A DNA stretch of 27,873 bases from positions 1 through 27,873 of the IMG/VR virus record IMGVR_UViG_2778261450_000008; one strand, 5' to 3'. The stretch comes from a virus (taxonomy: Duplodnaviria; Heunggongvirae; Uroviricota; Caudoviricetes). Each line of letters opens with the position of its first letter. Positions within the stretch are counted from its first letter, which is position 1. Shown here one piece after another: positions 2,919-9,662 of this stretch. The notes under the pieces were generated by a model. The model did no database searches, was not told the origin of the DNA, and saw only the letters and a list, made by a program, of their open reading frames with translations. Made by a program: the position numbers and the translations under genes.

Positions 2919-3841
2919 AGATATCTCTTGTAGTTCCTGTCTTCAATGAAGAAGAAGCAATACCAATTTTTTATAAAACGGTACGTGAATTCGAAGAGTT
3001 GAAGCCATACGAAGTGGAAATTGTTTTCATAAATGACGGCAGCAAAGACGCTACGGAGTCAATTATTAATGCTCTGGCTGTTTCAGATCCTCTAGTTGTT
3101 CCGCTGTCATTTACACGAAACTTTGGTAAAGAACCAGCATTATTCGCAGGGTTAGACCATGCAACAGGCGATGCTGTTATTCCAATTGATGTTGACCTGC
3201 AAGACCCGATTGAGGTTATTCCTCATCTTATTGAAAAGTGGCAGGCAGGTGCTGATATGGTGCTTGCTAAACGATCTGACCGCTCAACGGATGGCAGACT
3301 GAAGAGGAAAACCGCCGAGTGGTTCTATAAGCTTCACAATAAAATCAGCAATCCGCAGATCGAGGAAAATGTTGGTGATTTCCGTCTGATGTCTCGTGAA
3401 GTCGTAGAGAACATTAAGCTCATGCCAGAACGCAACCTTTTCATGAAGGGTGTTTTGAGTTGGGTTGGTGGTCGCACTGATATCGTTGATTATGCCCGCG
3501 CAGAACGTGTTGCTGGCAGTACCAAGTTCAACGGATGGAAGTTGTGGAATCTTGCTCTTGAGGGAATTACGAGCTTCTCGACTTTTCCGCTACGTATGTG
3601 GACTTACATCGGCCTTCTCGTCGCTGGCTTAGCATTTACATATGGCGCATGGATGATTCTGGACACTCTGGCGTTTGGAAACCCGGTTAGAGGTTATCCA
3701 TCCCTGCTAGTATCTATACTTTTCCTTGGTGGTATCCAACTCATTGGTATTGGTGTTCTTGGTGAGTACATTGGACGAATTTATATTGAAACAAAGCAAA
3801 GGCCGAAATATCTTTTAAAGAGTTCTAAAAATGAAAAATAA
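2915..3841 (+). CDS. gtrB: GtrB-family bactoprenol glucosyltransferase (GT2 family)
   Basis: 308-aa with an N-terminal GT2 signature (VVPVFNEEE...INDGSKD...DVDLQDP) and C-terminal membrane helices; YfdH/GtrB-like. Confidence 0.88.
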
Positions 3842-5387: not shown

Positions 5388-7193
5388 CTAAATTAGTTTA
5401 ACATCTACATTTCCTGCCGTTATCGGATCTTCAAGAACAGATGCTATGAATCTTACGACTGTGACAGCGCCAGTACCACCATAAACATATCCTTGAATTA
5501 GGTTTGGTGTTGTAGAAGAATCTCGACGAAAGTTAGATGAATTTACTGTTATGTACAAATTAAATGAATTTGTGCCATTGTTCTCAAACCTAAATATTGG
5601 CAAAGAAATTGGTGGATTTGCTGGGACAACCTGAAATTGACATCCATTTATCACCATTGTACCGTCATAAATAGATGGCGAAGCTTGGACTACTGCTATT
5701 CTTTCCCCCTTTACATTCTCACTTCCACAACTATTCATTGTTATTCCATGAGGGTTATTGAAAAGATAAGCTCTTGATATTGTCTCAGTAGTACCAGACA
5801 TAGGAAATATAGAATCAGCAGTACAACAATTTAGTGTTGTGTACTGTTGAGCGTCAATTTCAAAACCAATTTGATAATTAACAACTCCCACCTGGTCTAG
5901 AAGATTACTTGTTCCAGAAAGGTTATATATACCATCCCTCACTTTACCTAAATAAAAACCAGTAAACTGCCCAATAGCCAAACCTAAAAAACCGCACCGT
6001 TCAAATATATTTGAGAAGCAATCTTCACCCCAAAAACCATAATACCCACATTCTACACGCAAGTCTCTTAACAAACTTGAAGCCATGTAAGGAGAGTATA
6101 TTCCATATGTTGGTTGATTATTTCTATCTATAATTTCATGACGTCTTAAAGTAACACCTTGTATCTCTACGCCTGTAGCATAGTTATCACTCTCAACACC
6201 ATCTACAACGAATTTTTTTGGAAGAATAATCAGCAGTGCATCCACTGAGACTCCAGAAATTATGGTGTTCGCGTTATTTGTTGTTTTAGAGATAATCGTC
6301 TTATTTTGACCTTGACCTATGATTCCAGACCATGACTTTACAACAGGACTTTCGGAGGTTAGATATTCACCTGACATAAAATGAATAGGGGTATTATTAT
6401 CATATCCATATGATAAAGCCTTTGATATTGCAGAGGCGTTGTCAAAATCATTTATCGGTTTTGCTCCAAAATACTCTACCCATATCTCACCATCAACAAC
6501 CCTCCTCCAAGCAAATTTACCTGAACTTGGAACAATAACAATCCCTCCATCATCGGCAATCTGTGATGTGCTATTGTCGAAAGACTGGAAGTAACCACCG
6601 CCATAATGTTTTTCAGTTGCTGTAGCACTTGCTGCTGAAGCTACATAGACAATTTCTCCAGCAACTAATGGTATTGAATCCCTCAGCGCATCTAAATTGA
6701 GAAAGTTGCCTATGTGGCGAAAGCCATCATCAGCAGCCAAGTCACTTCTCAACGTATCTATTTTATGGGCATTATTGTCAAGAGCATCTTTGACAGTTTC
6801 ATCTCCATAACCAACCAGAGATGCGCCATCAGGGCCAGAAAGCTCAGCCCTTAACTGATCTGGAGAATATTTCAGTAGATCAGGATAATAGAATTGTTGT
6901 GCGCCATACGCATCATATACAGCCATGGAGTGATTCTGTACAGTTACGAACTTGGTAATCTGTCCGTTATATACGGGGTAACCAGCAGCATTAATGATGA
7001 TTGGTTGCGAAACAGGAACGTGAGAACCGTCTTCGTTCTCTATATAAACCTGAATCTGGTTTTCAGGATTTACCGGGTCAGTGTCAATTTTACCGATATA
7101 AATTTTGCCATTGGCTACAGCTTTAAAAGAACGAGCCATAGTGAAGAGTTGAGAAGGCATGCTTACCACAACATTTGCGGTGATATCTGACAT
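5388..7193 (-). CDS. Tailspike protein: P22-type N-terminal head-binding domain fused to a distinct receptor-binding (probable polysaccharide depolymerase) domain
   Basis: The track ORF starts at 7241 but a GGAG Shine-Dalgarno precedes the ATG at 7193. From there [46 protein letters not shown]... closely matches my recollection of the P22 gp9 N-terminus. The remainder does not match P22 and its 3' part is visibly AT-rich. Confidence 0.85.
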
Positions 7194-7314
7194 TTCATTG
7201 CTCCAGACGAATGATATGATGCAACCATGATTTGATTGCATACCGAAATGGTACTATTGAGTATTTATCCAGTAGGTTACGATGCCATTCCACCCAACTG
7301 GTGAGGCATCAAGG
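7194..7314. promoter_or_regulatory. Divergent intergenic region between tailspike and mnt; candidate promoter/operator
   Basis: 121-bp AT-rich spacer between two divergent starts. It contains TTGATT (7233-7238), a TACC-N5-GGTA inverted repeat (7241-7253) and TATTGA/TATTTA elements. Inferred from position only. Confidence 0.3.
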
Positions 7315-7575
7315 ATGTACAGCAAATACGACGAGGCGCAGTTTCACTTGAGACTTCCGCATGAACTTCACGCGAAAATTAAACAGCGCGCGAAGATGAA
7401 TAACAGGTCACTGAACTCAGAGATAATTGCAGCGATTGAAGAATCATTGGCTAAACAAAGCTTTGCATCAGTTTACATTGACGATGCAGAGCGTATGGCA
7501 GAACAACAATCTGATATGGTTAAGAAAATTGTCTTTGATACGCTCAAAGAGCTATATAAAAAAGACAGCAGCTAA
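7315..7575 (+). CDS. mnt: Mnt-like ribbon-helix-helix repressor (Arc/Mnt family); alternative start at 7282
   Basis: C-terminus DAERMAEQQSDMVKKIVFDTLKELYKK matches my recollection of P22 Mnt (DAERLADEQSELVKKMVFDTLKDLYKK); the N-terminal RHH region aligns from MYSKYDEAQFHLRLP. No arc or ant ORF is adjacent. Confidence 0.75.
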   Translation: MYSKYDEAQFHLRLPHELHAKIKQRAKMNNRSLNSEIIAAIEESLAKQSFASVYIDDAERMAEQQSDMVKKIVFDTLKELYKKDSS

Positions 7576-7595
7576 CCATCAGTTACGGAGGATTT

Positions 7596-7673
7596 ATGCA
7601 AAGAGATATGCTGAATATTGCGTTATACATATTTGGTTTTTGCACGTTCCTGGTGTTTGCGAAGCTATTCTGA
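7596..7673 (+). CDS. Candidate 25-aa hydrophobic membrane peptide (MQRDMLNIALYIFGFCTFLVFAKLF)
   Basis: ATG preceded by GGAGG at ideal spacing (acGGAGGatttATG), 20 nt after the mnt stop; single predicted transmembrane helix; its 3' end overlaps the gp16-like gene on the opposite strand. Too short for the supplied track. Confidence 0.35.
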   Translation: MQRDMLNIALYIFGFCTFLVFAKLF

Positions 7674-9662
7674 CAACGCATCAGACTTGGCACCCTGAGT
7701 CAGGGCGTTAATGGCCTTTTGCGCCTGCTGCATGGCTTTCTCAAACGCTGTTGATCCGCGTGGGGTGTTTGCCATTCGGAGCATTGCATTTCTGAATGGC
7801 TCGCTCTCATAGGCGCGAGTAAGAAGTCCGTAGCTTACCGCTGCGCCAGTTGTCGCCGGGTTCATTGCCGTCCCATATCCGATAATGAACGGGATGGTTT
7901 GCTGCCCTGTTGGTGTTGTTACTGCTGCTTTTGCAGCCTGCTGCGTGGATTGCAGGTAGTTTTTCAATCCTTTCAGATAAGCGGCTTCATGACCTTTAAA
8001 TGTGATGCCAGTCTGGTTTTGCAGGATATTAAGCTGCCGAAGGAACTGGTCAGGGGATCCGCCAGATTTCTCCATCGCCTTTCCAATGATGCCATTGCGC
8101 ATTTGCGCCCTGCCAACACGACCAACTGAGTTATACAGCGTCTTAATTTCCGATTTGTTCTTGCTGAATAGCATGTTGTTGACAACTTCCGGCGTCAGGT
8201 CGCCTTTCATGAGAACATTCTTCAGCCTGGTATTCTTTAGTTTCGCAGCTTCGTCAGCATAGACGGCATTGGCCTGCTGATATTTACGGAGGGTATCGTT
8301 GCCAAGATTCTGACCAATGGCACCATTGATATCGTCAGTCATTGCCTTGTAAACGCGCTGAATGGCAGCATCGGAACGGTTTGGTAACACTGGTCGCTCA
8401 CCCTTTACGTCCATTCTGAACTGGCTGCGCAGATCGCTTAATTGCTTCAAATCCAGATTTACCGGACCATCAGGACCAGCATTGCGAACAAGCTCATCAC
8501 GATAGGACTGAAGTTTTGAAATAGTCTCGTTATCAGCAACCTTACCAAGCTTCTGCAGGTTAGATATTTCTGTATCAATCTGCTGAATTGCTCGCGCAGG
8601 CTGAATGTTTACTCCAGCCATAGCATTCTGAACCTGCTCCAGTCGATTACCGGCGGCACGACGAATTCCTGATGTTTTCGCTTTAAGGCTGTCAATAACA
8701 ACCGCTGGATCATACTCGCCGAATTTATCAGCAAATCTCTGCACCAACTGACTTCTCGCTTCCTGTTGCGTTGCTCTCATTCCGCTTGTGCCAGCCAGTG
8801 GTATATTTTCTGCTGTAGTCTGCGCCATTTTCCCGACGCGGGAAGTAGGCTGTAACAGGTCTGTGGTGTGCAGAGGAACTCCTTCACGCTCTGCAAATCT
8901 GATAGCCTGCTGCGCTTCTGGCGCAATAGAACCACGAACGCCACGATAAGCAGCACCTAATCCACGTCCGGCAGCGTTAATAGCACCGCCAGCCAGCACA
9001 CCAACGCCTAAATCGGTGGCGAGTGCTTCCGCATCATCTTTCGCACTATTTGCAGCAAGTGATCCAACTGCGTTTTCAGCGAGAAGGCGAGTTGCCCCCT
9101 GAGCAATTCGACCAGCAAGTGTTGGTGCCTGTGTTGCCGCTCTCTCAACGCCAGCAGGAGTGAGGTAAGGCAATGCTTCAGCAAATACCCTTCCCTCTGT
9201 CGTTTGTGGAGTCATCGCGCCTTGCTGAAGGCCAAAGTCCTGCTCTAATCCCTGCGTTGTTACTCGTGGCGCTGGTTGATATGTACCATCGCCAATGCCG
9301 AGTTTACCGCCAGCCCAAGCCGCCGCGCTTGTTACAGCATCGGCAACTGATGCAGGTATGTTTGCCACGTTCACGCCAGCCTGCACCAGTCCGCGACCAG
9401 TCTCTTTCACTGCTTCACCAAGATCAGACATAAATCCACTTTGCTGTGGTTGTAGCTGTGCTACTGGTTGCTGTGTCTCCACTGGCTGCACAGATGGCAA
9501 TGGATAGGCTGCATAGAAAGCTTGCTTAGCCTGCTCTGCATTTTCTCCGGCTTGCGGGGCCACGACTTCATTGAAGTATTGCTCCTGAGCCTGCGCTTTT
9601 TGTTCTGGTGCTAACGCCTGATACTGTGGAGAGGCGATAACATCTTTCCATGCTTTAGCCAT
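7665..9662 (-). CDS. Ejection (internal virion) protein, P22 gp16 positional homologue
   Basis: 665-aa Ala/Gln/Gly-rich protein, last of three consecutive genes in the position of P22 7-20-16; its ATG overlaps the stop of the upstream gene (TAATG). Assigned by synteny and composition. Confidence 0.65.
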   Translation of the reverse strand: MAKAWKDVIASPQYQALAPEQKAQAQEQYFNEVVAPQAGENAEQAKQAFYAAYPLPSVQPVETQQPVAQLQPQQSGFMSDLGEAVKETGRGLVQAGVNVANIPASVADAVTSAAAWAGGKLGIGDGTYQPAPRVTTQGLEQDFGLQQGAMTPQTTEGRVFAEALPYLTPAGVERAATQAPTLAGRIAQGATRLLAENAVGSLAANSAKDDAEALATDLGVGVLAGGAINAAGRGLGAAYRGVRGSIAPEAQQAIRFAEREGVPLHTTDLLQPTSRVGKMAQTTAENIPLAGTSGMRATQQEARSQLVQRFADKFGEYDPAVVIDSLKAKTSGIRRAAGNRLEQVQNAMAGVNIQPARAIQQIDTEISNLQKLGKVADNETISKLQSYRDELVRNAGPDGPVNLDLKQLSDLRSQFRMDVKGERPVLPNRSDAAIQRVYKAMTDDINGAIGQNLGNDTLRKYQQANAVYADEAAKLKNTRLKNVLMKGDLTPEVVNNMLFSKNKSEIKTLYNSVGRVGRAQMRNGIIGKAMEKSGGSPDQFLRQLNILQNQTGITFKGHEAAYLKGLKNYLQSTQQAAKAAVTTPTGQQTIPFIIGYGTAMNPATTGAAVSYGLLTRAYESEPFRNAMLRMANTPRGSTAFEKAMQQAQKAINALTQGAKSDALSE

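Follow-up and report, generated by a model that had tools for sequence, protein, structure and literature searches.

The stretch of DNA analysed here (hereafter the window) is 27,873 nucleotides (nt) long and corresponds to positions 1–27,873 of IMG/VR record IMGVR_UViG_2778261450_000008, a virus of the Caudoviricetes. Between an orphan mnt gene and the gene for a DNA-ejection protein it contains a short open reading frame (ORF; positions 7596–7673, plus strand), which we regard as a candidate superinfection-exclusion gene. The ORF starts at ATG 7596 and ends at TGA 7671–7673, and its 25 codons specify the peptide MQRDMLNIALYIFGFCTFLVFAKLF, in which a few polar N-terminal residues (M-Q-R-D) precede one hydrophobic helix; its grand average of hydropathy is 1.24 overall and 1.93 over residues 5–25. 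A Shine-Dalgarno sequence, GGAGG, lies at 7587–7591 on the same strand, separated from the ATG by the 4-nt spacer ATTT. Upstream, the mnt gene (7315–7575, plus strand) encodes a protein of 86 amino acids (aa) and stops at TAA 7573–7575, leaving a 20-nt gap to the ATG of the ORF. Downstream, the ORF converges with the minus-strand gene for a 665-aa gp16 of the Sf6/L type (7665–9662), overlapping its last 9 nt. An initial annotation of this DNA had reported the position of the ORF, its GGAGG, the gap after mnt and the overlap with the gp16-like gene, and each of these can be read in the sequence. The consensus GGAGG is indeed present; the spacing, which had been termed ideal, is better placed among the shorter functional ones. 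The ribbon-helix-helix nature claimed for the upstream protein was confirmed by Pfam (Arc, E = 1.5e-14; Repressor_Mnt, E = 3.3e-14), and the location does equal that occupied by sieA in phage P22, convergent with gene 16.

Taken alone, the ORF and its Shine-Dalgarno sequence are within chance expectation. Shuffled sequence contains the motif GGAGG-N3-8-ATG 4.2 ± 2.0 times, whereas the window has two copies, and the region between positions 6000 and 10000 contains 65 ORFs of at least 20 aa. The gene is significant because the comparative data, and not the motif itself, exceed what chance would provide. For this comparison, loci were sampled blind to the ORF, the query consisting solely of the last 200 aa of the adjacent gp16. 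In IMG/VR, 80 loci were collected with the gp16 of the window (a clade with a 25-aa peptide) and 80 with that of the Salmonella prophage BTP1 (a 23-aa clade); they comprised 40 and 39 nucleotide haplotypes, respectively. Conservation of the ORF and its Shine-Dalgarno site in relatives had been proposed as a check by the initial annotation. The frame was found intact in 159 of the 160 loci (79/80 and 80/80), the sole exception being a contig that ends too early, and the Shine-Dalgarno site was kept. The frame of the ORF was the only one of the six that is open across all 40 + 39 haplotypes. Its pN/pS (the ratio of non-synonymous to synonymous polymorphism) was 0.35 for the 25-aa clade; the 23-aa clade, with pS as high as 0.64, had a ratio of 0.245; the other frames gave values of 0.76–2.4, save for the antisense frame that shares its wobble positions. 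Extra alleles in the 23-aa clade were distributed over the three codon positions as 22/9/47 (p = 6e-7). Residues R3, L6, G14, V17 and G18 were invariant, each being specified by 3–4 synonymous codons, and the 25-aa and 23-aa clades are separated by an in-frame indel of 9 nt. Three unrelated upstream contexts (the mnt stop, a lipoprotein gene and an Sf6-type intergenic sequence) join the conserved sequence at the base preceding the ATG, and in both clades GGAGG or GAGG followed by NTTT-ATG (N being A or G) precedes the ORF in numerous upstream settings that are otherwise unrelated. These results make it very probable that the ORF is a protein-coding gene under purifying selection.

The family so defined has members of 23–26 aa that share the core M-x-R-[DN]-x-[LMI]-N-x-A-F-x-I-x-G and, behind it, a hydrophobic tail whose last residues are LF. 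The window peptide fits this core and aligns with the versions found in Sf6, VSe13, L, BTP1, HF4s, phiKp_30 and Arsenophonus. In these P22-like phages and prophages the members were always convergent with an Sf6/L-type gene 16, with 9–12 nt of overlap at its stop codon. The ORF is present in phages Sf6, IME10, VSe13, L, ST64T, ST104, BTP1, MG40, g341c, HF4s and Klebsiella phage phiKp_30, and in prophages of Escherichia, Citrobacter, Kluyvera, Atlantibacter, Pseudescherichia, Ca. Erwinia dacicola and Arsenophonus; when phages and prophages are considered together, the hosts also include Shigella, Salmonella and Klebsiella. It accompanied every gp16 C-terminus examined that had an identity of at least ~72%. 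It was absent from Proteus phage Brookers (60% identity with the window in the gp16 C-terminus), from the Yersinia aleksiciae locus, and from the P22-type gp16 loci examined (P22, E. coli HS1 and Citrobacter NCU1). The 25-aa type is present in ~256 of 5426 complete E. coli genomes (about 5%). By megablast, 141 of the complete E. coli genomes contain the region, and in none of these had the ORF been called by the NCBI Prokaryotic Genome Annotation Pipeline (PGAP). Likewise, it is annotated in none of 39 phage records that bear it, including the curated records of L and MG40 by Casjens. Profile searches of Pfam, NCBIfam and PHROGs with the peptide gave no match, and none of 10 peptide variants was present in a collection of 15 billion proteins when looked up exactly.

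A family member lies in a locus for which prophage expression and exclusion of BTP1 have been shown experimentally. Prophage BTP1 specifies STnc6030, a 786-nt transcript (D23580 chromosome, 403942–404727, minus strand) that is highly expressed in lysogens and is antisense to the tailspike gene's 5′-end and the 3′-end of STMMW_03891, the homologue of gp16 (PMC7067206). When cloned and expressed from PLlacO-1, STnc6030 conferred total immunity to BTP1 and none to P22; its over-expression left the titre of spontaneously induced BTP1 unreduced, which the authors could not explain (PMC7067206). The sole ground for classing the transcript as non-coding was the lack of any ORF above 60 aa (PMC7067206); a 2025 review still lists it as an antisense RNA, and no paper reinterpreting it as coding was found. 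Its locus is homologous to that of the window ORF: the transcript opposes the 3′-end of gp16 and includes a homologue of the ORF preceded by GGAGG, 23 aa long in BTP1 as against 25 aa in the window. In contrast, its transcription start site (TSS) lies inside the tailspike gene, while the window ORF follows mnt. When the published primers were mapped, the clone was found to hold the whole BTP1 homologue, MERDLLNFVFLIFGLVVGKLLFA (chromosome 404250–404321), together with its GGAGG. This ORF, at nt 407–478 of STnc6030, is the only ATG-initiated ORF of the transcript that has a Shine-Dalgarno site. STnc6030 does not fit the description of a non-coding transcript, since the ORF it includes is conserved, has a Shine-Dalgarno site and is under purifying selection. 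A hairpin of −17.3 kcal/mol is predicted at nt 471–505, spanning and extending just past the stop codon of the ORF, and the main Northern bands, of ~480–500 nt, agree in length with a transcript that runs from the mapped TSS as far as this hairpin. This suggests that the abundant transcripts may miss the proposed RNA 'seed' at nt 650–687. Neither phage L nor the window conserves the hairpin. The four escape single-nucleotide polymorphisms (SNPs; chromosome 404041–404078) are all missense changes in gp16 residues 583–595, ILGIGTVTNPALV.

These data are consistent with the following mechanism. In the window prophage, the ORF would be co-transcribed with a lysogen-active mnt transcript and then translated; a terminator scan found no terminator-like site between the two genes. 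The peptide would insert into the inner membrane as a single helix and interfere with the conduit formed by gp16 and gp20, blocking DNA delivery by incoming phages that have a cognate gp16 of the Sf6/L type. The interference would concern a Gly-rich gp16 segment located ~60–72 residues from the C-terminus, and in BTP1 the peptide would be the active product of STnc6030. Since such a blocker would act on incoming gp16, the resident prophage would be unaffected on induction; P22 would not be excluded because its gp16 is of a different type; and every escape SNP would change the protein because gp16 is what the membrane blocker acts on. The initial annotation had suggested that the ORF could be a replacement exclusion function; this fits the published BTP1 data, in which a clone that includes the ORF excludes BTP1, and is plausible. 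We moderately favour the complete chain, in which a 23–25-aa inner-membrane peptide, SieA-like in its action and unrelated to SieA, would exclude incoming phages.

The comparison with SieA of P22 bears on both the location and the target. Like SieA (types A, B and C), the peptide is encoded between genes 16 and 9, convergent with gene 16 and opposite to the late operon (PMC10883804). SieA is likewise expressed from the prophage, and P22 escapes it through two substitutions in gp16, G532W and P546S, together with changes in gp20 (PMC10883804), the two substitutions being in a C-terminal region that aligns with the segment in which the STnc6030-escape SNPs lie. A BLASTP comparison of the P22 and BTP1 gp16 proteins (35% identity, E = 8e-90) placed P22 P546 opposite BTP1 V589, inside the escape segment, and P22 G532 opposite BTP1 G576, 7 residues upstream of it. 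The escape sites would coincide because two unrelated membrane blockers act on gp16. The segment is flanked by the invariant anchors TGQ and GYGL...YES.P.RN, and its local variability (0.70 and 0.57 bits) exceeds that of the flanks (0.23 and 0.32 bits), although it is not the most variable block, so that this point is weakly supportive. In the window, gp16 residues 593–605, IIGYGTAMNPATT (positions 7848–7886, minus strand), align with BTP1 gp16 583–595, and we infer that they form the target in the window phage. The SieA paper does not mention BTP1 (PMC10883804).

The likeness to SieA is one of action and not of descent. SieA has 162–212 aa, 3–4 predicted helices and a cytoplasmic FxRYPxEAxxFNK motif, while the window peptide has 25 aa and one helix; membership of the SieA family thus failed on size, topology and sequence. 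The possibility that the peptide is a C-terminal remnant of sieA was also rejected, since it has no similarity to SieA and the homology between loci starts exactly at the ATG. SieA also excludes phages that have the ejection proteins of Sf6 or L, whereas the BTP1 locus spares P22; and escape from SieA needs changes in both gp16 and gp20, whereas a single SNP suffices in BTP1. A tblastn search with P22 SieA gave no match in 168 ORF-bearing loci, P22 itself being the only match among all loci. The SieA loci examined (P22, type A; HS1, type B) lie beside a P22-type gp16 and have no small ORF. The peptide adjoins gp16 of the Sf6/L type and SieA types A and B adjoin the P22 type, and the two were never found together in the loci examined. 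The claim is therefore that the peptide works like SieA, not that it is a SieA. That the 23–25-residue peptide is the smallest known phage superinfection-exclusion protein, the true effector of STnc6030 and directed at the same gp16 segment as SieA is a statement we would place only just on the probable side.

Several considerations weigh against this reading. For every family member, the claim that the ORF is coding and translated comes from sequence comparison. The BTP1 clone tested for exclusion carries the RNA and the ORF together, and a function for the window peptide would have to be transferred from one that is ~50% identical. That all four escape SNPs are non-synonymous is not statistically decisive, and their positions also fit an antisense model, as they lie inside the region complementary to full-length STnc6030. 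The ends of the Northern bands are judged by size only, and on the condition that the transcripts start at the mapped TSS. The promoter of the BTP1 transcript, TTGAAT-17-TTCAAT, was sought in the window and is not conserved there; it is tied to the tailspike junction of the P22/BTP1 type. A promoter scan of the window yielded only two weak sigma-70-like sites (7187–7215 and 7400–7427), neither of them convincing for mnt. Finally, the membrane association of P22 gp16 in vitro does not need residues 476–609 (PMC10883804), so that a simple helix-to-helix contact within the membrane is not established.

The alternative that best survives is that the ORF encodes a real small membrane protein with some other role (the modulation of a host membrane protein or a contribution to lysogen fitness, for example), and that exclusion is mediated by RNA as published, through pairing of STnc6030 with the late mRNA. 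The location of the escape SNPs within the complementary region agrees with this, as does the fact that P22, which is not excluded, has no nucleotide similarity in that region (PMC7067206). The antisense model accounts only for where the escape SNPs map. It is at odds with the yield of induced BTP1, which was not lowered by over-expression, a result its authors left unexplained; with the finding that all escape SNPs alter the protein and coincide with the SieA-escape site of a gp16 only 35% identical; and with the possibility that the abundant transcripts stop short of the 'seed'. Moreover, the window and 44 similar loci keep the ORF despite a different upstream transcript architecture. In cis-antisense systems, single changes at the site of initial contact can matter, a point in favour of the RNA. 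On balance, we consider exclusion by the RNA with a peptide devoted to something else to be unlikely.

A transcript with two functions, in which the antisense RNA and the peptide both contribute to exclusion, is an improbable explanation. In its favour, dual-function RNAs such as SgrS/SgrT are known, and STnc6030 runs ~300 nt past the ORF into sequence antisense to gp16. Nothing in the data demands two activities, however, and the objections raised against the RNA step apply here as well.

There is very little chance that the ORF is fortuitous and lies in a non-coding spacer conserved for other reasons, for instance as a terminator or as an RNA element serving the late operon. The GGAGG-ATG motif is, as said, within chance expectation; in the 25-aa clade codons 10–21 are well conserved at the nucleotide level too, and the antisense frame sharing the wobble positions likewise has a low pN/pS. 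That antisense frame, however, is closed in 39 of the 40 haplotypes of this clade, and the 23-aa clade combines saturated synonymous divergence with a conserved protein. No sign of a structured RNA was obtained (fold z-scores of −0.18 and −0.89; 0 pairs in RNAalifold; no match in Rfam; no terminator), and the start codon and Shine-Dalgarno site are kept across unrelated upstream sequences. The comparative data already largely refute this explanation.

The initial annotation had likened the peptide to small membrane toxins and considered that mnt, as a gene for a ribbon-helix-helix protein, might specify its antitoxin, and it described the ORF as lying behind the orphan mnt. The architecture of 168 ORF-bearing loci does not bear this out. 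In 78 of them only the ORF separates gp16 from the tailspike gene; it follows mnt, as in the window, in 44; mnt and a lipoprotein gene precede it in about 24; and in 17, of the L type, it is divergent from orf62. Phage Sf101 has the same mnt and no ORF, its homology to the window stopping just past the mnt stop; phage Sf6 has no mnt, its homology starting one base before the ATG, and has the ORF intact. Judged by these arrangements, the ORF is independent of mnt, whose proximity is incidental, and is linked instead to the 3′-end of a gp16 of the Sf6/L type. Similarity to the type I toxins and other tiny enterobacterial peptides (Ibs, ShoB, Ldr and TisB, 18–35 aa) does exist: a comparable size, a single hydrophobic helix, an overlapping antisense transcript from a convergent gene, and a history of being overlooked by gene callers, to which the window adds the upstream ribbon-helix-helix gene. 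Even so, it can hardly be that the peptide is a type I toxin or a small membrane toxin for which mnt supplies the antitoxin or regulator, given the absence of obligate co-occurrence, the Repressor_Mnt domain that marks the upstream gene as a classical Mnt, the position of the ORF, fixed relative to a phage structural gene, the lack of a dedicated antisense small RNA (no match in Rfam, the only antisense transcript being the late operon mRNA) or of any match in the protein families searched, and the tolerance of the BTP1 clone, which was constitutively expressed from PLlacO-1, still gave lawns usable in plaque assays and was not reported to cause a growth defect.

A small inner-membrane peptide blocking DNA entry would belong to a known kind. 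HK97 gp15 and T4 Imm are small inner-membrane proteins, expressed from the prophage or early in infection, that block genome entry by related phages; they are several-fold larger than the peptide, unrelated to it in sequence, and confront different entry machineries. What would be unusual is the size, together with the need to re-test a published RNA mechanism. If the proposal is right, P22-like phages have evolved two unrelated membrane blockers, each encoded beside its own gp16 lineage, and a segment of ~13 residues in gp16 is a shared weak point of the DNA-delivery conduit that both of them strike, which would be of use in understanding the passage of gp16 and gp20 across the inner membrane. 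An immunity gene that has gone unrecognised would be carried by Sf6, L, ST64T and BTP1, and by some 5% of the complete E. coli genomes, a new gene in some of the best-studied temperate phages. The mechanism of a published and reviewed 'antisense RNA' exclusion factor would be overturned, and the paradox of the induced prophage resolved. The case would also show what is missed by the length cut-offs of gene callers and by rules such as 'no ORF over 60 aa'.

Other small genes were observed around the same junction. In the Yersinia aleksiciae locus (L180), a different ORF of ~42 aa, VLEIASFVALAAIVYLIRQVGILSNRVSELEKITDRLNDKIN, preceded by AGGAGG, occupies the equivalent slot, convergent with gp16. 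It lies within ~170 nt downstream of the gp16 stop on the opposite strand, and its product has one hydrophobic helix and an unrelated sequence, which hints that the slot adjacent to gp16 repeatedly hosts small membrane proteins. The lipoprotein gene found between mnt and the ORF in ~24 loci is on the same strand as these and encodes ~160–173 aa with the lipobox LLVGC (for example, positions 3194–3715, minus strand, of locus L010, and 2344–2829 of the VSe13 locus, L085). In Proteus phage Brookers (locus L091, 2261–2737) a 'putative lipoprotein' gene fills the position of the ORF and is followed by a terminator hairpin. The lipoprotein may be another surface or exclusion function expressed from the prophage.

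The gp16 protein is itself polymorphic in length, having 759 aa in locus L010 (824–3103) and 665 aa in the window. An extra block of ~95 aa near the N-terminus (residues ~55–150) is present in some prophages, the C-terminal 200 aa being at least 98% identical. PGAP names some of these proteins 'lytic transglycosylase domain-containing protein'; Pfam found no significant domain in the window copy. On the other side of mnt, the region between this gene and the start of the tailspike gene (7194–7314, 121 nt) is divergent, and the tailspike gene probably starts at ATG 7193 (MSDITANVV) rather than at 7241. ORFs of 86–107 aa run antisense to the conserved head-binding domain of the tailspike (window 6894–7190, plus strand; L010, 4140–4400; L065, 3208–3531). 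They lie inside the 5′ part of STnc6030-like transcripts and are probably shadow ORFs of the coding strand.

The exact mnt–ORF arrangement of the window is present in E. coli W. Assemblies labelled DH5alpha (NZ_CP026085.1 and NZ_CM135829.1; 4.83 Mb) also bear the prophage region, at 98.5% identity and with the same score as E. coli W, which is unexpected for a K-12 derivative and suggests mislabelling of the strain. As for mnt, the gene in the window is an orphan, without arc or ant, and its start at 7315 is that given by PGAP in identical or near-identical E. coli prophages. PHROGs (phrog_795) and several RefSeq phage records, including that of P22 mnt (NC_002371), label Mnt repressors as 'partition protein ATPase', which looks like a propagated misannotation.
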